Below are positions 8,322 to 60,379 of a DNA stretch of 64,000 nucleotides, piece by piece. Position 1 is the stretch's first letter, and each line of letters opens with the position of its first letter. The position numbers and the translations under genes were made by a program. The DNA comes from Eledone cirrhosa (lineage: Eukaryota), in NCBI GenBank assembly GCA_964016885.1, contig OZ024743.1, forward strand, positions 127,534,001 to 127,598,000. Direction: 5' to 3'. The notes below the pieces were generated by a model. It was not told the origin of the DNA and did no database searches. It saw nothing but the letters and a program-made list of their open reading frames with translations.

Positions 8322-9613
8322 CGAGGGAGGATCAAAAAGTTCGCGGAATTTTATCGTAGTAAGAAAAAAATAGGTTAAAACAATATTAAACATGTCAGAA
8401 CATTGTCACTGAGTGTTTACCTTGCTATTAGTCACTTGCAGTCAGTTATGCGTGGACTATTGTACAGTACTGACACTTTAAAAAACCTCTTTTTGGAACA
8501 ATGGAAAATAGTTATTTTGAGATAAGATCGAATATCAAGTTTCTGGTGAAACTCAAATGCAAAGGGACACAGATTATGGAGGCTTTAGTTAAAGTTTACG
8601 GTACTACTGCTCCAAAGAAAACTGCTGTCTACAAGTGGATTCAGCGATTCAAACAAGGGAGAGACGACCTTGAAGACGACCATCGCAGTGGAAGACTAGG
8701 AACATCAAAAAATTACCAAACGTTGAGGCTACTCAGACTTTAATTGAAGAAGATCGAAGAATAACAGTTAATCAGTTAGCTAAGTCCCTAGACATTTCAT
8801 ATGGTTCGGCAAATTCAATTCTGCACGATAATTTGGGACTAAGCAAGCTTTCAGTGCGTTGCGCCCTGATCAGCTGATTCTTCGAAGTGATCTGTCTTTG
8901 GCGATATTAAACAAAATTGAAGTTGATGAAGAGCATTTCCTGACCAGAATCATCACCGGAGATGAAACCTAGATCTACCAGTATGATCCTGAATCCAAAC
9001 AGCAGTCAAAACAGTGGCTTCCACGTGGATCATCGGGGCCAATCAAGTTCAAATCTCAAAAGTTGGATAAAAAAGTGATGGCCACCATTTTCTGGGATTC
9101 AGATGGGGTGATACTAATAGATTATCTTGAAGGTCAAAGAACTGTGACAGGAGCTTATTATGCAAATGTTTTAAGGAAACTGAAAGAGGCATTAGTCAAG
9201 AAACGAAAAGGGAAACTTCATGGTGGGATCTTGTTTGACCATGACAATGCACCAGCGCATTCTGTGCGGGTTGCAAAAGAAGTTCTTTGAGAATTTCGAT
9301 AGGAAGAGCTTCCTCACCCGCCTTATAGTCCAGATTTAGCCCCATCAGACTTTTTCCTCTTTCCAAAACTCAAAGAAATGCTAAAAGGAACCCGTTTTAG
9401 TGGTGTTAAAGAAGCTAAAAACACTGCCAACACATGGCTTCGAACAAGGCCTTCAACTTTCTTTAGAGACGGCTAACGAAGCTGGAAGCATCGCCTTGTG
9501 AAGTGTATTGACCTGGATGGCAACTATGTAGAAAAATAAATTGAAGGTAAATCATATTTTTTGAAAAATAGAATATTTTCTGAAAAATTCCGCAAACTTT
9601 TTGATCCCCCTTG
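8322..9613 (+). mobile_element. full-length mariner (DD34D) transposon with an inactivated transposase (~8501-9538)
   Basis: TIRs CGAGGGAGGATCAAAAAGTTCGCGGAATTT / AAATTCCGCAAACTTTTTGATCCCCCTTG, 5' TA. Motifs TGDET, KVMATIFWD, HDNAPAH, HPPYSPDLAPSDFFLF; several in-frame stops. Confidence 0.93.
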
Positions 9614-12570
9614 TCATCATCATCATCATCATCATCAACGTTTAACGTCCGTGTTCCACGCTTGCATGGGTTTGGACGGGGGTAGTCCCACTTGAGGCAA
9701 GAGTGATTGTCTTGCTCGCATAGGACTGTCTGGCAGGTTTTCTACAGTTGGATGCCCTTCCTAACACCAACCACATTTACAGTGTGGGTCTGGGAGGTTT
9801 TTACCGTGTTGCCTACACGGCCACATTACAGCGTGGACTGTGTGTTTTTTTGTCGTGACACCTACACGATCTCATTTGTTTCGGCCTCGAAGGCGCGGCA
9901 CCAACATAACTTTACATAGAACGGGGTGGTGTGGATCGGGTGGGGGTGGGGGTGGTGGGACGGGGTGTATTTTGTTAGAGATGCCTACTGGCTGGAGTAG
10001 GTTTTACTATATATTTAGGTAAGGCGGGTCTTCTCTGTTACTGAGTACCGCCAAAGGTCTCGGTCCAGTGACATTGTCTTGGAGAGGTGTAAGTGTGTGA
10101 TGTCGGAGTTTATCAGCTCGTCCCAGGTTTTTCTAGGTCTGCCTATTCCGTGACTACCGTCTATCTTTATTGCCCTGCACTTTGTTATACAGCTATCGAC
10201 TTTCATGCGCATCACGTGTCCATACCAACGTAGCCTTCTCTCGAGTAAACAACATCTGATCCCTCTTATCTCTAATTTTTTCCTTAGTTCGTTTATGCTT
10301 TGCCGTTCACGTATATTACTGTTACACATCCAGCGGAGCATGCAAGCTTCGTTCCTCTCTAGTCTGCGTATATCCTCTGCACACAATGCCCAGGTCTCAC
10401 TGCCATGCAGCATTGCTGTTCGTATGCAGGCATCGTACAACCTGCCTTTCATTTTTAGTGAGAACCCTTTAGCAGCTAATAGTGGTATAAGCTCTCTGAA
10501 CTTTTTCCAACCAGTTCTGACTCTAGCTACAGTACTTTCAGAGCACCCTCCCCCACTGCTGATTTTATCGCCCAGGTAACGGAAGCTGTCCACTATTTCT
10601 ATAGAACCCTCTGCGCAATTGAAAGAGCTAGTAGTTTGTGGGCACTTGCTGCTACTTATTGCACCAGAGCACCGGCCACATGTAAAATCTATGTTCTTAG
10701 TTAGCTTACCTGTGATCCCACTACATCTTTTATGCACCCATACTTTGCATTTAGGACATAAAATGGAGTTTCTACCTACGCCTTTCCTACACACCGAGCA
10801 CGACCATTTCCCAGAAGGGACCGCCGCCTTGTTTTCTTTCCTACAAACTAGCACTTTGGTCTTAGCCAGGTTAATTTTAAGTCCTTTTGACTCTAGGCCG
10901 TGCTTCCATGTTTGGAATTTCTTCTCTAGCTCGGCCATTGATTCCGCTATGAGTGTCAGGTCGTCTGCGTATAGGAGTTCCCATGGGCAGCCTGTCTTGA
11001 ACTCCTCTGTTATAGCCTGAAGGGCAATAATAAATAGTAGTGGACTGAGAACAGAGCCCTGATGGACGCCAACTTTTACGCTAAACTCTTCACTATATTC
11101 GTTGTTAATTCTAACCTTGCTGACTGTTTCTTTATACATGGCTTGTATAGCCCTCACAAGCCATTCGTCAACGCCTAGTTTTCTAAGAGCCCACCAGATA
11201 ATGGAGCGGGGGACTCTGTCGAAGGCTTTCTCCAAGTCGACAAAAGCTAAGTAGAGGGGTTTACCTTTAGCTAGGTACTTCTCCTGTAGTTGTCGTACTA
11301 TGAAAAGAGCGTCTGTGGTACTTTTGCCTGACACAAACCCGAACTGCATTTCATCTAGGTCAATTCTCTCTCTGATTAGTTGCGCTATTACTCTTTCCGT
11401 GACCTTCATGACCTGGTCGATTAATTTAATGCCTCTATAGTTACTCCTATCTAGGGCGTCTCCTTTACCCTTATAACAGTTAACGATGATGCTGCTATGC
11501 CAGTCCTTCGGAACAACCCCATTCTGTACGACTTGGTTAACTATGCGGGTGACCATGGTGTGTCCCACCGTGCCAGATGCCTTCAGCATCTCAGCAACTA
11601 TTTCCGAAGGCCCAGCCGCCTTACCAGTCTTCATATCCTTGATTGCCTTACTTATTATACTCCCCTCGACTAACACTGCTGGTCCCTCTATTGGGTCGAT
11701 ATGGGGGAGACTGCCTTTCTCCCAATTATTCTCCTCATTTAGAAGCCTTTCATAGTGACACTTCCAAGCTACCTTCTTATCAGCGTCGGTGATGGCAAGT
11801 GTGCCATCGTCGTTTAGTACACACTTCTCCCCGACAATATCACGGTTTTCCTTGACGCATTGCCTAGCAATCCTGAACACCTCACGTTTTTGGTCATCGC
11901 GTTGTAGAACATGCTTGAACTTTCTTTCCTCAGCTTCCCTTCTTGCTAAGTACACTTGTCTCCTAGCTTCCCTCCTGGCCACTTGATAGTCCTCTCTACT
12001 TCCCCCATCCCGCCATACTTTCCAAGCCTGCTTTTTGGCCTTAATTGACCCCTCCACCTTACTGTTCCACCACCATGTTACTCTCCTCCTGCCTACAGGC
12101 CTGCTCCAGCCACAGACTTCGTCTGTCGCCAACAGCAGGTTTGCTTTCAGAAATTCCCACTCTCCCTCTATATTGTCCGACTCTAAATGTTCTTCCTTAC
12201 TGTCGAAAGCATCAAGTAATATGCTTTGAAATTTATTCCTGGCTGTGGGGTCCTTTAGCTTCCATATTTTCCTCCTGAGGATAGTCCTCTTCTGTTGTCG
12301 AGTACGTCTCGTCCTGACTATGAGGTCGCTAATTATCAGTCTATGTTGGGAGGTGCATTCTTCATGGGGGAGGGATTTAGTGTTAACAACAGACACTCTG
12401 TCACGTCTTCTGGTAAGGATATAATCTACCTGGCTTGTGTGTTCCCCGGATCTATAGGTGATCAGGTGATTGTCACGTTTTTTGAAGTTAGTGTTACAGA
12501 TAGTTAGGTTATTTGCATCACAGAATTCCAGGATTCTGGAGCCTTCCTCATTTCTAGTACCAAACCCATA
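9614..12570 (-). mobile_element. RTE-clade LINE (subfamily B), young, 5'-truncated inside the endonuclease
   Basis: Uninterrupted 793-aa ORF 12396-10015 (SQH endonuclease end, complete RT, PHD-like finger), 3' UTR, and a (GAT)n tail abutting the right TIR of the mariner. Confidence 0.95.
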
Positions 12571-13377
12571 GTATATATATATATATATATATGTATGTAT
12601 ATATTCCTCCTCATCTAGTACCGGGCCCCAAAACTGTGACTACACTGTGAAGATGGGTTAGGCTCCTTGTATCAGTGCTATCCAGTACCAGTACTAAACT
12701 ATGGTTCTGCTGTGAGATGGGTTGGGCTCCAAAATTGTGGTTCCTTTGTGAGATGGGTTTGGCACAGCCCACTGGCCTGTCCCTCCTCAAGACAGAGCCA
12801 TCCAGTCCCACACTGTAAATGTGGTTGGTGTGAGGAAGGGCATCCAGCTGTAGAATACCTGGCCAAATTTAGAGTCCTTGCCGGAGCAAGGTACAGCATG
12901 GTCAGACTTGCCTCAAGGCATGGATGACCTGTCTAACACATGCAAGCATGGAAAAATTGATGCTAAACAAAAATGATGAGGATATATATATATATCTACT
13001 AATATATAATACCTTTCTGTATTTGTTCGTCACAAGACAGGACTGAGGAAGGAAGGGGTGGCAGCACCTAATATTCTCTACACCTGTGTGTGTCTAAGAA
13101 TAACGAATTGGCTACACACATTGGCTGTTATGATTGTGTGTGTATGTGTGTTTGTGTAAATTATGTTTATATATAATTGTTTCTGCTTTTGGCACAAGGC
13201 CAGCAATTATACCAGTGTATTACTGGTACTTTATTTTATCGACCTCGTAAGGATGAAAGGCAAAGTTAACCTCGGCGGGATTTGAACTCAGACCATAAAG
13301 GGCCGTAACTCTTTGCTGCAAAGCATGGCGTCCGAGCCTCTACCGATACTGCCAATCCACCACCAAATTATGTTTAT

Positions 13378-16318: not shown

Positions 16319-16513
16319 GAACTGAACCCTAACATAGAAGCACCGATTTCTAAAATCCTGGAACATATTAAATTGAATGTAGATAAAAGCCCTTCTGACA
16401 ACCTGAGAATATCCAAAGATGACAAAGGAACCATGCATATCTGGATTAATTCCGAACTTTCTGATTACCCATTTACCTGGGAGTTAATTGGGGAACCAGC
16501 ACATGAAGAAATG
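16319..16513 (+). CDS. NHEJ1: NHEJ1/XLF internal coding exon (head domain), phase 0/0
   Basis: ttccag|GAA acceptor and ATG|gtaatt donor; 195 nt. ELNPNIEAP...INSELSDYPFTW aligns to XLF ELNKRLTAP...VRSELSGLPFYW. Confidence 0.88.
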
Positions 16514-23199: not shown

Positions 23200-24720
23200 A
23201 GTTATACAAATGATCAAAGACAATACACGTTGCAAATCTGTAAAAAAACAAGCAGTTTTGCTAAAGTACAAAAAGTTGTAATGAAAGCAGAGTTGTATAC
23301 AAACAAAAAAACAATGAGAGTAGAATAAGACAAAATCTATTCTTTGAGAGCATCCTTTGCTGTGTATGGTTAAATTTTGAACTTATAATCCAAAATATCC
23401 TGCATGACATATTCATTGGTATGTTTTATAATGAGTAAGGTGAAGTCAAGGCAGAGCTGTAAGTTTTTTTGATAACACTAAAGCACTTCAGGATAGACGA
23501 TATTCTTTGTTTTTCTTTTCGGAACAAATGCAAAGAGATTATCTCGACTGCCAACTCGTGAGCAGGCAACGTAGAATTGTCCGTGTGAAAAGCAAGGTTC
23601 ATCCAAGTGAATTCCAGCAACGGACAGAGTTTGACCTTGCGACTTGTTTATGGACATCGCAAAGGCAACGCGAAGGGGAAATTGGGTTCGGTGAAAGGGG
23701 AAGGGAGTATCCACGCCTGATGTAGTCAGGCTAATTTTTGTTATTATTACATCCTCGCCTTTTCCACATCCGGATAGAATGGTAGCGTCAATACTAAGTG
23801 GAGACAGTTTTTTAACCACAAAGCGTGTACCATTGCATAGTTTTGGAGGAGTGATATTTCTCAGCAAAATAACTGGTGTTCCCTCTTTCAGAACCAATGT
23901 ATTAGGAGGTAAACCAGGAGGATTTAAAGAATTTAGAAATTCAACTGGATAATTGACCGCATCCTGTGGATCACATACAGTATCAATAGATTTATATATC
24001 CATGGACATCCAGGAAGAAGCTGAAGAAGCTGATCGTTAATACAGCTAACCGTGATACTTTTGGGTGCAAGAATGACTCTTTCGCATAGCCAATCAAGAT
24101 TTGTATAGTTATCACGCAAGTTCGGGAATACACTTGCCTTGAGATCATTGACAGTTTCAACTACATTGCAGATGTGATCAATTGCTATGTGTCCATCTGT
24201 ATCCGGAGGTAGGTTACCATCTCCTATTGTAAGAATGTCTCCAGAAAATGTTGATGACATAGGGTCCCCATGTAACCTTGCACGCGTGTTGGTAGTTAGT
24301 CTTAATGATGTCACTTGTCGCCACAATGGTGAAGACTTAAGACATGCATTTACCGCATCTGCTCTTGTTCCTTTCGGTATTATAGGAAGAGTCTGTCTGA
24401 AGTCTCCTGATAGCAGAAGGGTGACAACCCCCCCATAACATCACTGCAATACCGTATGTCTTGCAAAGGTTATCTCCCTTTTTTATAAGGATTGTCAAAG
24501 TTTGTTATCTCCCTTACATCAATTTTTCTACCGATAATTTTGATATCGATTTTTTATTGCTCAACGTAGGTCGATTTGAAAAATGTTCGTGATGTGACAA
24601 TCTTAGCGACCAGTGCAACGTGCACAGAAAATTTGGTCAAATTCAGTTGGTAATTGTGAAAGCCTTAAGCATGCAAAGTTGTACACAGACACACACACAT
24701 CCTCGCTTTTATATATATAA

Positions 24721-26300: not shown

Positions 26301-26439
26301 ATCTCTGAGAACATGACTATTCCACTTTTGTTGATGGTGTCCGAATTGTATCACCGACAAAGAGAACTAATTCATATTATTTCCAAAAAGGATTCAGAAA
26401 TTGAAGACTACAGATCCCAATCAGTTAAACTTACTCAAA
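26301..26439 (+). CDS. NHEJ1: NHEJ1/XLF coding exon (coiled coil), phase 0/1
   Basis: Pyrimidine tract + aactag|ATC acceptor; CAA A|gtaaag donor; 139 nt. ISENMTIPLLLMVSELYHRQRELIHIISKKDSEIEDYRSQ aligns to XLF [40 protein letters not shown]. Confidence 0.9.
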
Positions 26440-27223: not shown

Positions 27224-27285
27224 AACAACTAGCGACTGTCTGCTTTGATAAAACAACTTTTGAAAACAATATGGTGTTATCTAAG
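27224..27285 (+). CDS. NHEJ1: NHEJ1/XLF coding exon, phase 1/0 (not in the ORF track)
   Basis: ctaac branch point, tttcag|AA acceptor, AAG|gtgagt donor; 62 nt. (K)QLATVCFDKTTFENNMVLSK aligns to XLF [20 protein letters not shown]. Confidence 0.85.
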
Positions 27286-29726: not shown

Positions 29727-29847
29727 GAATTTGAGGACAGAGTGAAATTGTTGGGGACAACTGCTTTTGACAGTTTTGGGCAGGATCTTTACCAACAAAT
29801 CATGACAAAGTATACATGGCTGCACAAATGTAGCAAAGCTGATCCAG
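29727..29847 (+). CDS. NHEJ1: NHEJ1/XLF coding exon, phase 0/1 (not in the ORF track)
   Basis: aactag|GAA acceptor and CCA G|gtagag donor; 121 nt open frame EFEDRVKLLGTTAFDSFGQDLYQQIMTKYTWLHKCSKADP (F...Q.LY helix typical of XLF). Confidence 0.8.
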
Positions 29848-29899
29848 GTAGAGTTGCCTAATTTATTTTGTACAATGTTGTCATCACTTCCTGCTATTA

Positions 29900-30175
29900 T
29901 CTCTTTCATCACCATCATCATCCTCACTATTATCATCATTACCATCACCATCTGTTATTATCATCATTATCATTACCACTGCAATCTTCATCACAAACAT
30001 TATCATCATCATCCTCTATCACCATTGCCACTACCACCTTGGTTACCATTTTTACCACCATCACTATGCTCATTCTCACCATCACTACCTGTTACTGTCA
30101 TCATCATCATCACCATCATCATAGTCTATCACTATCAACATCACAATAATCATGGTCACCATCATCATCATAGCC
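29900..30175. repeat. degenerate (CAT/CAC)n trinucleotide microsatellite
   Basis: Visible catcat/caccat runs; source of the His/Ile/Ser-rich spurious ORFs. Confidence 0.85.
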
Positions 30176-31913
30176 ATCTGTATTTCAGCTCCATGTTGGT
30201 GACTTCTGTTACTTTTGTTATGTCACATTATTTCTGTCTACCATTGTATGATGTTTTATGACCATTGACATGGCCAAGTAGTGAAGTTTACTTCACAATC
30301 ACAAATTTCTTGGTTCAATCTCACTGTACATCTTAAAGAAGTGTCTTCCAAGTCATGTTGGATAAATGACAGGTGTTATATGCTATGTCACACTGACTCT
30401 GCTTTATGTGGGATTACATTAAGGATACAAGTGTGTGGAATACTTAACCATTACTTTGTTATTCAATGAGTAGGTAGTTCTGTTGATCTAATGAGAAATT
30501 TGTCCCTGCTTTCTGAAAAAGTCTCTTCTATACAAAAGAAAATATTATCCTCAGCTTTATCTACATTGTTTACCATTTACCTGTGTTACCATTGCACATA
30601 CATACATGCTTACATATACATATACTCCAGTATACATTGTAAATTGGTTGGTGTTAGGAAGAGCATCCAGCATTAAAAATCATGCTCCCAGTACATGCAG
30701 TAAAGTGAATGGTATTAGGAAAGGCATCCAGCCATAGAAACCAAGCCAAAACAAAGTGTACTAGCAGGACCTAATCACCTGACCAGTCAGGCCTCAGTAT
30801 GCATCAGCTGTCTAACCCATGCAAGCATGGAAAATAGATGTTAAACGGTGATGATGATGATGATATACATCATCATCTCCATTTAACATCCACTTTCTCA
30901 GCTAGCAAGAGTTGAACAGACCTTCATAGACAGAGTCAGTACTGAAGTGGGGCTCACATCTTGTATACATACAGTTCCATGTTCTACCATGTGCATTTTA
31001 TTGTGGCCCCAGCACTAGAGAAGTTATCATGTCCTTGACACAACTGAAGGGTGCTCCCAACCCTTTGTTTGGCAAGCGTTCTATAGCTGAATGTCCTTCC
31101 TGTCACTAACCACTTTACAGTGTGTACTGGGTTCATTTATCGTATAGATCACTAGCACTAGGAGAGGTTGTCATGTCTTTAACACAATTGAAGAGTCCTC
31201 CCAACCTTTTTAAGCATGATTTCTACAGCTGGGTGCCTTTCTTCTCGCCAACCACCTTCCAGAGTGTACTGGCTGCATTTTCATGGCAAAGTCACTTGAG
31301 AAGTTGTTGGTCATAGTCCTTACTTAAGAGCCCTCCCTGCTTTGTGGGATTTAGAGGTGGGGGAGGGCAGAAGAGAAGAGAAATAGGTATGATGCTATGG
31401 GTGTATGATGAGTGTGGTGATGTGACTAGATGATGAGTAGGGAGAATGGGTGACTAGTATAGTATGTTAATCCCAGGCTATAGTAAACGTGTAATTTTCT
31501 ATAACCTGAGGTTGACCTATGCCTTGTGAGGTAAATTTGGGTAGATGGCAATTGTCTAATGAAATGTACTTATAATTCAAAGGGCTAGCCTTGCTGTACA
31601 TGTGTCTGGGGAATGCTCATCCACTTGCATGTTGATTTTTTGAGCAGCCTATTCTGTTAGTCAAAACAATGGTAGCACTCATTATCAAAACTGATGGAGT
31701 TCCGCTCTCTTTGTCTGTTGTTTTGTGAGATGAATTATTTGTATTGAGGTGTAGATATGGCTGTGGGATTAAGAAGTTTACTTCAGAAGCTTTGGACTTC
31801 AAGTTCAGTCTAACTGCATAGCATATTGGGCAAGTCTTTCATTATAGCCTTCCATTAATCAGTGTCTTGTGAGTGATTTTGATAGACGGAAAATGTAAAG
31901 CCCATTTGTATGA

Positions 31914-31963
<50 letters not shown>

Positions 31964-32224
31964 TCAGTATTTAATCAGATCTACTATCTTCCCAGGAACC
32001 ATGTCCCATTTATATATATATATGTGTGTGTGCGCGCGTACTAGTTGCCAAGAACATCATTTTGACTTCATTATGAAATCTGTAGTGACAGTTGTTTATG
32101 TCATCCATAAATAATACATTGGGCAGCATTTGACCACAGTATGGGTTGACATCAGGAATAACATTCATCTCAGATTGTTATTATCTCTGATGGTGACTCA
32201 ATGTTTTAACCAATATTGTCTTAA

Positions 32225-32463
32225 CCCTTTTGATACCAAGCCACTTGAAACCACTTTTGATTCTATGATACAAAACTGTTTGTTTTAAAGTGTTTTTCTT
32301 TATTTAAAAACCTTCCATCATAATTTTATGTAATAGCTTTTGTTAAGTTCCAAACTCCAGCTTAATAATGAGATATTACTAAATTCCTCTAAATTCTTGA
32401 TTACTTTCAAAATTATTTTACAATTATGCTCAGTCTTTCATTAGAAATATGGCAATGAAAGGA
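32225..32463. mobile_element. piggyBac-like MITE (~240-255 bp; copies also at ~26015-26250, 51744-51998, 59892-60101, partial 34686-34840)
   Basis: TTAA|CCCTTTTGATACCA ... TGGCAATGAAAGGA|TTAA; the 51.7 kb copy ends AAAGGG|TTAA; shared internal sequence. Confidence 0.65.
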
Positions 32464-33065
32464 TTAATTGTCATCTTATGATATATGTTTATTACTTAAC
32501 CAAGGAAGAAAATGAACCTGTAACATCATTACTCTACTCCTCTAACATTGATTTTTATGAAATATTTTTGCAGTTTAGCCTCAAGTCAGGCCAGACCAAG
32601 TAGACATATGATCAAAGGTACCCAAGCAGTAACCATTTAGTCTTATTTACTAGAACTACATTAGAATATGGCAGTTGAATATGGCTCAGTCTTTAGTTAT
32701 ATAGCAGTGGAACGTGATTCAAAGTCTTTAGCAATATTACAGTTGAATGTGGCTTAAAGACTTTGGTAATATGACAATAGAATGTGAATCCATCTTTAGT
32801 TATATGACAGTGTTTTAATAAGAATATGATTCAAAGTCTTTTAGTAGGATATTAATAAAATAACTAATATTGTGGTGTTAATTCAAATGACTTTACTCAC
32901 TCCCTCTCCATAAAAATTAGCCTCGTGATTAGTAAAAGAAAGCAACGCTGTTATAATATTTTAATTGAATAGTTAATTATCTGTTTGTTTTTTTGGCTAA
33001 TATCCTTTCATATTTTGGAATAATTAATATTTATATTCCATCTCACATTTCATTTCCCATTCCAG

Positions 33066-33835
33066 AAACCTTTGAAATTACAAAACCTTTAGAAGAATCT
33101 TCCAATGTGTTTACAGAGCTTGCAGAACTGTCAACTGCTGTGGAAGAACATGAGCAGAAGGTTAACATTAGCCCTGACATCTATGATTGCAACCAGTGCA
33201 TATTTTCAACAAGTTCCCAAGAACTTCTGCTCCATCATATCAGCATGTACCATGAAGACTCTGCTCTAACTATCAATGCCAACTTTGCTGGCCAGCTCCA
33301 GCAAACAGTTCTAGCTGATCCATTGCCTTTGTTTAATGCTGGTAATATCGCCTGTCCACAGTGTGGTCAACACTATAAGACTCAATATGGATTGCAGAGT
33401 CATATGAACTCTAAACACCTTGGAAAGTTTCTGTTTAACTGCTCAATATGTGGTCGTGGTTTTGATAGTTTCTGGACGTACAAATCCCACATCGACAAGC
33501 ATCACATACTAGAAGAAAAATGTGACCGATGTAATTTGACGTTTCGTTTTAAAAAAAGCTTGTTATCTCATAAACGTTTTTGTGGTCGTACAAAACACCA
33601 TGGTGGGGAGTTGTTTCGTTGTAACATCTGTGAACAGACTTGTTCATCAAAAGACTCTCTTTCCACCCACATGCGTGGGCAACATGGCAGCCAACACTAT
33701 CGATGTAGACGCTGCAACAAAATCTATAAATGGCGTTCATCATTGAGGTATCACACTGAGAAATGTTTTAATCAGCCGGTTATTCTCAATACAGACAATC
33801 CGGAACCACAATCTATGTTGTTGATGGCTGTTTAA
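33066..33835 (+). CDS. terminal exon encoding six zinc fingers (4 C2H2 + 2 C2HC); candidate alternative last exon of NHEJ1, or last exon of a nested ZNF gene
   Basis: Intact ~256-codon frame: CNQC..H..H, CPQC..H..H, CSIC..H..H, CDRC..H...C, CNIC..H..H, CRRC..H...C. No ATG before finger 1; tctcac branch point, pyrimidine tract and ttccag|AA acceptor in phase 1. Confidence 0.82.
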
Positions 33836-35465
33836 TTAGTTAACATTCTAGAGTCACATTGTATATATAATATATATATATATATATCACCATCATCATC
33901 ATTTAAAATCCATTTTCCCTGCTAACCAAGGCTGGGCAGGTCATCACAGACCATGTTAGTACTTAGTTGGAGCTAGTAGTGGGTTGGTAGAATCATTAGA
34001 AATTCAGATAAAATGCATTGCAGCATTTAGTTATATGTTCAAATCCTGCTGAGGTCAATTTTTGCCTTTCAACCCTTTGGGGCTGATAAAATAAAGTACC
34101 AGTTAAGTATTGGGATTGATATATTTCTTCTCATTCTTTGTGTTCTGAGTTCAAATCCCACTGAGGTCAACTTTGCCTTTCATGTTTCCTAGGTTGATAA
34201 AATACCAATTAAGTTATGGGGTCAATTTCATCGACTAACCTCATCTCTCAAAATTGCTGGACTTTTGCCTAAATTGGAAACTATTATTAGTTAAGAAAAT
34301 AGTAGTAAGGTGGCAGAAATAATATTTTGTTAGGTATAAGTTTAACTCCTGTCAAAGTTAACATTGATTTTCATCCCTCTGGGGTTGATAAATATAAATA
34401 CTAATCAAATACTAAGAGTCAGTTCAGTTGACTATTTTCCCTGTTTCCTACAAATTTGTGGACTTGTGCTAAAGTTAGAAATTATTATTAGTTAAAGGAC
34501 GAAGCTGAAACTATATGTCACACTGTTTGTCTTGACATATCATCTGTTTCACACCTTGAGCATAACATGATCCACCAACCCTTCTAGGAGGGCTGTAACT
34601 CTGAATAAAAACTAACTTGGATTGTGATGACCCCCTCCAACTCATGCCTGTGTGGAAAGTGGACATAAAATGATGACTAGGATTAACCTCTTCATTACCA
34701 TATTTCTGCTTATGTTTTCAAATTAATTTTGTGAATAAAAATTAAATTGGAAGGAATTTAATTAAGTGTTGATAGTAAGCTGGTGTTTAGGGCTTACTTT
34801 AACAAAATATTCTTTGATAAAATTATGAAGGATGGTTTTATGTAATTGAAAAATTGGTGGATGGCATTAGGAAGGGGGCATCCAGTCATAGAAACCAGGC
34901 CAGAAACAGTTCTGTATGAGGAAGACATCTGATCTGATTTGTCTCACAACAGGACAACTTGTCTTACCCATGCTAGTGGAGAAAATGGACATTAAACGCT
35001 GATGATGATGATAATGATGGTATCAAAAGCATTGAACTTATTCTTAAGATTCACTTTATCTGTTATTCCAGTGGAAAAATATTGATTTTTCCTTTCTAAA
35101 ACTGGCTCTCTTTTACGGAAATACCACCATCTGAAGACATACACAACACTCATTCTTCAGCCGACAGAGCCTCTTAAATTTGTTTTCAAATAAATCCTAC
35201 TATTCCTTATATAAATCCAGTTACAAGAAAAGTTAAACTCCTTAACTTTGTAGCTATTTATTCAAGATATAAAATGATTATTTATTTTTTCTTAGAGAAA
35301 TGATTTGGTTCTTAATTTAAAAAAAAAATTTCCTTCCAGGTAAAAAGTATATTTTCAAACTAATTTTGGTGTTTTGTTAAAACAATCTATTGTCTTTTCC
35401 TCAACAAATGTGCCTTGGGAGTTGTCTTCAGATCGCTCTCCTGTATATATATAACACATGCACAT

Positions 35466-59635: not shown

Positions 59636-59799
59636 GTGGCACTAGTGGTGACAGTGGAAGTTCTGAATGTAATTACAGAGCAGATGGTCCCAGTTGGCTG
59701 AATGGTACCTCATACCTGAATAAAAAGGATCCAGTAGAGAATGAGGTAGTAAAAACTCCTCTTCTGTCTTCACCATCCATGTTAAAGGTTTTGGAGAAG
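59636..59799 (+). CDS. NHEJ1: NHEJ1/XLF penultimate exon (disordered C-terminal region), phase 1/0, probable GC donor
   Basis: Long T-rich tract + atccag|GT acceptor; open frame GTSGDSGSS...GPSWLNG...KTPLLSSPSMLKVLEK; AAG|gcaagt donor; in frame with both neighbouring exons. Confidence 0.7.
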
Positions 59800-60103
59800 G
59801 CAAGTATATCTTTTCTTTGTTTTTTGACCCTTTTAATACCAACCCACATGAGACCACCCATGGTTTTATGAAATAAATCTGTCCATTTTCACCTTTTCAT
59901 TGACATATTTCTAATGAAAAACATCACTTATGATTTTCTAATCCTTTTGAAATTTGGAAAGATTTAGTAGTATAACTAACTTTGACATTATGAAGCTGGT
60001 GTCAAATATTTTTAATGTTTTAAATAAATATAAATACTAAAAAAAAACAGCTTTGTATCACAGAACCAGGGCTGATTTCAGGTGGTTTGGTATCAAAAAG
60101 GTT

Positions 60104-60215
60104 AACAACAACAATCACAATAAAATCAACAGTGACACTGACAACAACAATGGCACTAACAACAACAATGGCACTGACAATAACAATAACAACAACAATA
60201 GTACCGATGACAATG
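60104..60215. repeat. degenerate (AAC)n microsatellite
   Basis: aacaacaac runs in the last intron. Confidence 0.8.
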
Positions 60216-60286
60216 AATTAGATATAAGAGAGAAGAAACGATTGTAGATTCTGTTTCACTGACATGGTCCATTTTTGTTTTCCCAG

Positions 60287-60379
60287 GAGAAAGAGGAAGA
60301 ACGAAGGCTGCAACTTCGACAACGACTACTACTGGAAAGAAAGAAGAGGAGTTCAAAACTTAGGAAGAGAATGGTGTAA
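60287..60379 (+). CDS. NHEJ1: NHEJ1/XLF last coding exon with basic C-terminal tail (not in the ORF track)
   Basis: ctgac branch point, tttttgttttcccag|GAG acceptor; EKEEERRLQLRQRLLLERKKRSSKLRKRMV*. A basic extreme C-terminus is where XLF carries its Ku-binding motif. Confidence 0.75.
   Translation, partial: EKEEERRLQLRQRLLLERKKRSSKLRKRMV

Follow-up and report, generated by a model that had tools for sequence, protein, structure and literature searches.

An alternative last exon gives the cephalopod end-joining gene NHEJ1 (XLF) a six-zinc-finger isoform

Introduction

The Drosophila genes lola and mod(mdg4) combine a dimerising front part with alternative last exons that carry zinc fingers, including fingers of the C2HC type. 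In CSB-PGBD3, a DNA-repair gene has an intronic alternative last exon, a piggyBac transposase, which yields a fusion protein beside the full-length product. XLF, the product of NHEJ1, is a core factor of non-homologous end joining (NHEJ); its head, coiled coil and flexible Ku-binding tail are the same in the other animals sampled here. In this study we describe a 64,000-nucleotide stretch of the Eledone cirrhosa genome (contig OZ024743.1, positions 127,534,001 to 127,598,000; hereafter the window), in which NHEJ1 has, beside its canonical ending, an alternative last exon encoding six zinc fingers.

The locus retains the head, the coiled coil and the canonical basic-tail isoform of XLF/Cernunnos (human structures 2R9A and 7LSY), but a second isoform swaps the whole tail for an acidic linker and six fingers. 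As in lola and mod(mdg4), alternative last exons of the same phase follow a common front part, and the finger exon lies in cis, on the same strand as the XLF exons. However, the fly genes have a BTB front and an array of finger exons, whereas here the front is XLF, there is one finger cassette, and the other ending is a repair tail. CSB-PGBD3 is likewise a repair gene with an intronic alternative last exon, but Pfam finds no transposase family in the finger exon. With classical tandem C2H2 arrays the exon shares repeated fingers; the TGEKP linkers are missing here, and DNA binding is putative. The switch itself, in which a dimer domain gains fingers through an alternative last exon, is of a known kind; the partner is new and unexpected.

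Finger proteins that act in end joining have been described in humans. In the available parts of the two papers, C2H2 fingers bring ZNF384 to breaks and the protein loads Ku (PMC8589989), the fingers of ZNF281 bind XRCC4 (PMC6976523), and the C2H2 arrays of ZNF384, ZNF281 and ZBTB24 reach breaks and help to load Ku or XRCC4-LIG4 (PMC8589989, PMC6976523). These are separate proteins, whereas in the present case a core NHEJ scaffold itself carries the array; we claim no orthology.

Results

The XLF-zinc-finger isoform is real. An initial annotation, made from the window's letters, had predicted a splice from 29847, the end of the last exon common to both endings (exon 5), to 33066, and the X1 junction contig and database fusion proteins bear this out. 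We compared four sequencing runs (X1, X5, X6 and X7) with window positions 32100-33860. In X1, which comes from a related organism and is RNA by guess only, an 820-base contig spans 33061-33835 with 73 differences over 775 bases, and its 25 loose leading letters match the last letters of exon 29727-29847 at all but 2 positions; letters 33061-33065, five in all, could be assigned to either side of the junction. An 852-base contig of X7, a run whose kind is not on record and which does not differ from the window, spans 33061-33860 and opens with 25 letters that fail to align to the intron. These probably also represent the end of exon 5, given that their offset is the same as in X1, and the start of both contigs 30 letters before the junction may reflect a fork of the assembly graph at the donor. 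The X6 contig covers 33145-33794 only, and X5 does not cover the finger exon. None of the runs listed as carrying the sequence is on record as RNA, which counts neither for nor against the isoform. The canonical junction, 29847 to 59636, rests on database proteins rather than on reads.

The genome search returned one NHEJ1 locus and one full finger exon, which makes a processed DNA copy an unlikely source of the join. A nested gene is largely ruled out, as the only upstream join found leads to XLF exon 5 and, in agreement with the initial annotation, there is no Met before finger 1: the first in the frame is codon 60, within finger 1, which begins at codon 41.

Both endings are represented in databases. 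In RefSeq, the finger form of O. bimaculoides is XP_014769226.1, an isoform X1 that bears the name zinc finger protein 112, and that of O. sinensis is represented by isoforms X1-X3 (XP_029633395.1, XP_036356896-8.1). All have the same fusion and junction as in the window but are filed under 'zinc finger protein 112/69' names; the canonical form is present as XP_014769227.1 and XP_029633396.1. Logan proteins provide both endings: P0003, P0012, P0013 and P0165 are complete fusions of 550-586 residues, and P0173, P0174 and others are canonical, with 377-404 residues. The full-length fusions sit on Logan contigs of ~1.9-2.2 kb from two lineages besides octopus, and in a tree of the common XLF part these Logan proteins join Sepia pharaonis in a fully supported group that excludes the octopods. 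Both forms therefore occur in two decapodiform lineages and diverge at the same residue. Loss of the canonical form in decapodiforms is ruled out by the canonical proteins present there. Five of the eight isoform pairs are identical over 238, 238, 284, 285 and 300 residues and then split at the junction, which bears out the predicted last-exon switch; the other three are uninformative, with early differences in a variable N-terminal extension. For the decapodiform finger exon (P0001) and XLF exons (P0071, P0141) alike, the longest contig on record has 195,913 bases, which suggests that they may lie at one locus. For Argonauta, only a canonical protein was returned, labelled isoform X2.

Given that octopods and decapodiforms have both forms with the same junction, the isoform switch predates the split between them, roughly 270-300 million years ago. 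Outside the cephalopods the fusion was not encountered. Among 217 proteins collected, 121 match the XLF profile, and a finger motif is present in 10 of them, all of which are named cephalopod proteins or group with them; the other 111 have no finger. When longer relatives were sought, 3 proteins emerged from 643 candidates, and two of these combine XLF, XLF_CC and zf-C2H2. When the O. vulgaris fusion was compared with 50%-identity representatives, no protein besides those known matched both the XLF and the finger parts among the best 150 of 7554 hits. Fingers are also absent from the named bivalve, gastropod, nemertean and hemichordate XLFs, where isoform annotation may be incomplete. In this sampling, which is without Nautilus, the distribution suggests that the XLF-finger fusion is a coleoid innovation.

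The acceptor at 33066 is preceded by a pyrimidine tract and AG, and the frame from there spans 770 nt (2 nt, 255 codons and TAA), ending at 33835. It encodes the six fingers of the initial annotation, C2H2 at 33188, 33353, 33440 and 33620 and C2HC at 33521 and 33704, as seen by motif and by Pfam (zf-C2H2, PF00096, E=8.7e-16, 57.8 bits against a cut-off of 25.2). The linker ahead of the fingers is acidic (10 D/E, 2 K/R) and the array itself is basic (26 K/R, 9 D/E). For the VFxxLxEL stretch in the linker, a helix is predicted with low confidence at residues 251-265 (predicted local distance difference test, pLDDT, <50). The C-terminus of the finger isoform has no basic run and so lacks the Ku-binding motif of XLF.

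The finger exon is under purifying selection, as the initial annotation had proposed from its intact frame. We obtained the ratio of nonsynonymous to synonymous substitution rates (dN/dS) from the 40 listed of the 73 X1 differences (33112-33541), a single pair by simple counting; it is 0.047 over that stretch and 0.019 in fingers 2-4, and 32 of the 40 differences fall in third codon positions. The seven replacements in 33112-33541 are those that also separate the window from P0005, and the unlisted X1 differences there are therefore probably silent. O. bimaculoides and decapodiform proteins have identical residues at 115-118 of 138 positions in fingers 2-6 (83-86%), 76-82 of 127 in the XLF head (60-65%), 32-33 of 50 in the coiled coil and 15-18 of 38 in the linker; the window matches O. 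bimaculoides at 137 of the 138 residues of fingers 2-6. All five sequences compared agree at helix positions -1, 2 and 3 throughout fingers 2-6; position 6 varies in fingers 3 and 4. Judged by these identities, conservation since the octopod-decapodiform split has been stricter in the finger array than in the XLF head.

Most of the cephalopod NHEJ1 gene lies on the plus strand of the window (Table 1). Exon 5 has AG/GT borders, and its phase-1 donor serves both endings. The chain of exons 2 to 5 and the finger exon has no internal stop, and the chain through the two canonical exons is likewise stop-free to its own stop. In the front exons, the PF09302 head and PF21928 coiled coil both score above cut-off, and Pfam finds no BTB. 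The front part aligns to human XLF (E=2e-18); the head-loop Leu of the human protein aligns with Tyr or Phe. In this alignment, similarity to the folded part of human XLF extends as far as the junction, so that the finger exon replaces the whole flexible tail and, with it, the motif that binds Ku. The last canonical intron (59799-60287) is a GC-AG intron with a GC donor.

Table 1. Coding features of NHEJ1 and of its alternative last exon
Feature	Position (window, unless stated)	Strand	Evidence
NHEJ1 coding exon 1	G000:C4:127533237-127533434, ~0.6-0.8 kb upstream of window start		Genome search
NHEJ1 coding exon 2, XLF head	16319..16513	+	PF09302 E=1.1e-7; tblastn; splice borders
NHEJ1 exon 3, dimerisation coiled coil	26301..26439	+	PF21928 E=9.1e-9; frame check
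NHEJ1 exon 4	27224..27285	+	tblastn; splice borders
NHEJ1 exon 5, last exon common to both endings, end of folded XLF part	29727..29847	+	Junction contig; tblastn; human XLF alignment
Coding part of the alternative last exon: six zinc fingers after an acidic linker, then a short hydrophobic end	33066..33835	+	Junction contig; RefSeq XP_014769226.1, XP_029633395.1; Pfam
Conserved acidic amphipathic stretch VFxxLxEL ahead of finger 1	33107..33148	+	Alignment
Finger 1, C2H2, separate from main array	33188..33253	+	Motif
Fingers 2-4 (C2H2, C2H2, C2HC)	33353..33583	+	Pfam, motif, alignment
Fingers 5-6 (C2H2, C2HC)	33620..33766	+	Pfam, motif, alignment
Canonical exon 6, disordered tail, phase-1 acceptor, GC donor	59636..59799	+	tblastn, database proteins
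Canonical last exon, basic C-terminus without terminal L/I/F	60287..60379	+	Sequence comparison

The canonical tail of octopods keeps its basic run and is missing the terminal L/I/F (window, O. bimaculoides, O. sinensis and Argonauta). Of the 86 finger-less XLFs that are at least 280 residues long, 80 have this residue, the decapodiform ones among them; the other three exceptions have no basic end at all and look like incomplete models. In the available part of PMC7744095, to which all our statements from that paper are limited, the terminal residues of XLF enter a hydrophobic pocket of Ku80. Given this role, the missing hydrophobic end points to a Ku-binding motif that may be eroded, and to Ku tethering that may be weakened, in octopods. 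The initial annotation had called the canonical product the Ku-recruited form; the basic run fits that description, but without the hydrophobic end it is less certain. The finger exon is older than the octopod loss of this end.

With respect to the origin of the exon, genome searches scored the best 149 of 7507 and the best 150 of 11937 candidates, and among these no donor gene was found. The only close second match is an inverted copy of 169 bases (L002:1450-1618), 94% identical to window 33715-33880, which comprises the end of the finger exon and the start of the 3' untranslated region. It lies at G000:C4 near 220365400, ~93 Mb away, and terminates at a TA repeat. The remaining matches among the scored candidates are generic fingers, 27-44% identical. 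The closest non-cephalopod protein in the collected set is 35% identical, and Atlas searches returned generic C2H2 clusters only. The genome holds hundreds of C2H2 loci; in a six-frame motif scan, the window has one finger cassette and two isolated motif matches elsewhere. A transposon-borne multicopy exon is ruled out by the single full copy among the candidates scored.

Several database models depart from the finger exon as read here. The end of the finger isoform (33790-33835) has a conserved QS(M/L)LL..V/A in the window, a Logan octopus protein and decapodiform proteins; relative to these, the O. bimaculoides and O. sinensis models are frameshifted at their last residues, and the X1 contig has one gap there. 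The O. vulgaris model CAI9719355.1 exits the exon after finger 4 (~33607) and continues into the canonical tail, giving four fingers and a basic end. There is no GT at the matching place in the window, and the X1, X6 and X7 contigs read through ~33607 without a break; this form is either a model artefact or a species-specific third form. Sepia pharaonis CAE1323626.1 (P0015) enters the finger exon and loses frame after finger 1. P0165, from the same cluster, reads all six fingers, and the frame loss is probably an assembly or model error.

About 600 bases upstream of the finger exon, 32220-32470 is a very high-copy short repeat that hundreds of X7 contigs match. The description of the repeats as uniformly decayed in the initial annotation was overstated, given that an 874-codon retroelement frame is open at 10015-12639 on the minus strand, which we take from its motifs to be a reverse transcriptase of the long interspersed nuclear element type. 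Judging from motifs, a 320-codon minus-strand frame (23478-24440) is presumably a Helitron-type helicase, and 8973-9473 (plus strand) presumably holds pieces of a mariner-like transposase.

Discussion

We tentatively favour the reading in which the fingers take over from the Ku tether and fasten the XLF dimer of the finger form to DNA or chromatin. In this scenario, one gene would give two proteins with a common head and coiled coil, one ending in the basic tail and the other in six fingers, and the anchored finger form would still present XRCC4-binding heads for end joining. Since the dimer domain is identical, the two forms would probably mix when co-expressed, giving canonical, mixed and finger-only dimers. 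In Xenopus extract and mouse cells, the Ku motif of XLF is needed for joining; one Ku-binding tail per dimer is enough, at somewhat lower efficiency, tail-less dimers fail, and subunits hardly exchange (PMC7744095). A mixed dimer would thus carry a sufficient Ku tail plus a finger array, and a finger-only dimer would have to use its fingers to get to DNA. Recognition helices this close to fixed suggest a single defined ligand rather than general stickiness; the ligand could be DNA (a sequence or a structure), RNA, poly-ADP-ribose or a protein. The examples of ZNF384 and ZNF281 indicate that finger arrays can feed end joining.

Several observations weigh against this proposal. None of the five inter-finger linkers is of the TGEKP type, and the recognition helices have no Arg at -1 or 6 and have aromatics at -1 or 2, all of which is atypical of fingers that read the major groove. 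The head exons also serve the canonical form, so that their conservation is uninformative for the finger isoform, and a transcription factor would be just as compatible with the acidic stretch and the fixed helices. Vertebrate XLF lacking the Ku motif repairs poorly (PMC7744095), and finger-only dimers may therefore not repair. The predicted structure of the fusion is unusable (mean pLDDT 42, predicted template modelling score 0.23). The roles of the finger form in binding, localisation and repair are putative.

That the isoform is instead a sequence-specific transcription or chromatin factor, which uses the XLF head and coiled coil only as a dimer module, like BTB in fly lola, and has no part in repair, is the main alternative and one that we take seriously. 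NHEJ1 would then lend its promoter and start codon to a captured finger exon. This would be consistent with the near-invariant recognition helices, the dN/dS of 0.02 in fingers 2-4, the finger form's lack of a Ku-binding motif, the hundreds of C2H2 loci available as a source, and the conserved acidic amphipathic stretch, which resembles an activation or cofactor helix. However, the non-canonical linkers and helix residues fit it poorly as well, the single cassette is not a lola-like array, and the Ku tail of a mixed dimer would probably draw such a factor to breaks. We think it unlikely that the finger form is a brake, lowering NHEJ in some tissues or at some loci, with finger dimers holding XRCC4-LIG4, or mixed dimers holding canonical XLF, at undamaged chromatin. 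The finger form does lack the Ku motif, tail-less dimers cannot join and one-tailed dimers are somewhat weaker, but the latter still rescue joining (PMC7744095). In addition, truncation would suffice for a brake, and six strongly conserved fingers would be superfluous. The simple dominant-negative heterodimer put forward in the initial annotation loses ground for a related reason and is itself unlikely, since one Ku tail per dimer suffices in vertebrates (PMC7744095).

It is highly improbable, in our view, that the fingers bind an RNA or protein partner and link XLF to a process beyond DNA targeting and transcription: the aromatics at helix positions -1, 2 and 6, the mixture of C2H2 and C2HC and the irregular linkers would suit such an adaptor, but there is no specific likeness to an RNA-binding finger family, and the Atlas matches are generic C2H2. 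We give almost no credence to the idea that the exon is part of a nested gene, one with a separate first exon, or of a processed copy, and that the XLF junction is noise or a gene-model artefact. The octopus fusion proteins are indeed mostly gene models, no record states what kind of run X1 or X7 is, and X7's first 25 letters are identified by their offset. Against this stand the junction letters of X1, the full-length Logan fusions in two other lineages, the lack of a Met before finger 1, and the single NHEJ1 locus with its one full finger exon.

If the tether is exchanged, a bolder version of the proposal can be considered, although we find it doubtful. The finger isoform would be a sequence-guided arm of end joining that positions or recruits XRCC4-LIG4 at defined sites, partly independently of Ku, so that joining is favoured there, and in octopods, where the hydrophobic end of the canonical tail is gone, it might be the main route of XLF to DNA. 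If so, the preferred break sites could be transposon insertions, fragile gene clusters or programmed neuronal breaks.

The initial annotation knew of no described XLF-zinc-finger fusion. This holds for the literature, where our searches, with limited coverage of subscription papers, found no published description, but RefSeq and UniRef already hold isoform models. The available main text of a 2025 survey of cephalopod C2H2 genes has no XLF, NHEJ or fusion (PMC12513265), and its supplements might list the gene. The fusion is thus already in annotation and was not found in print.

There is a practical consequence for annotation, in that octopus NHEJ1 is partly hidden in databases under zinc-finger names, which the present analysis corrects. 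Coleoids are known for their expansion of C2H2 genes and for genome rearrangement, and the fusion would add a concrete coleoid innovation. The replacement of the tail of a core end-joining factor by fingers is a natural experiment, which may show whether a changed tether can steer end joining to chosen DNA.

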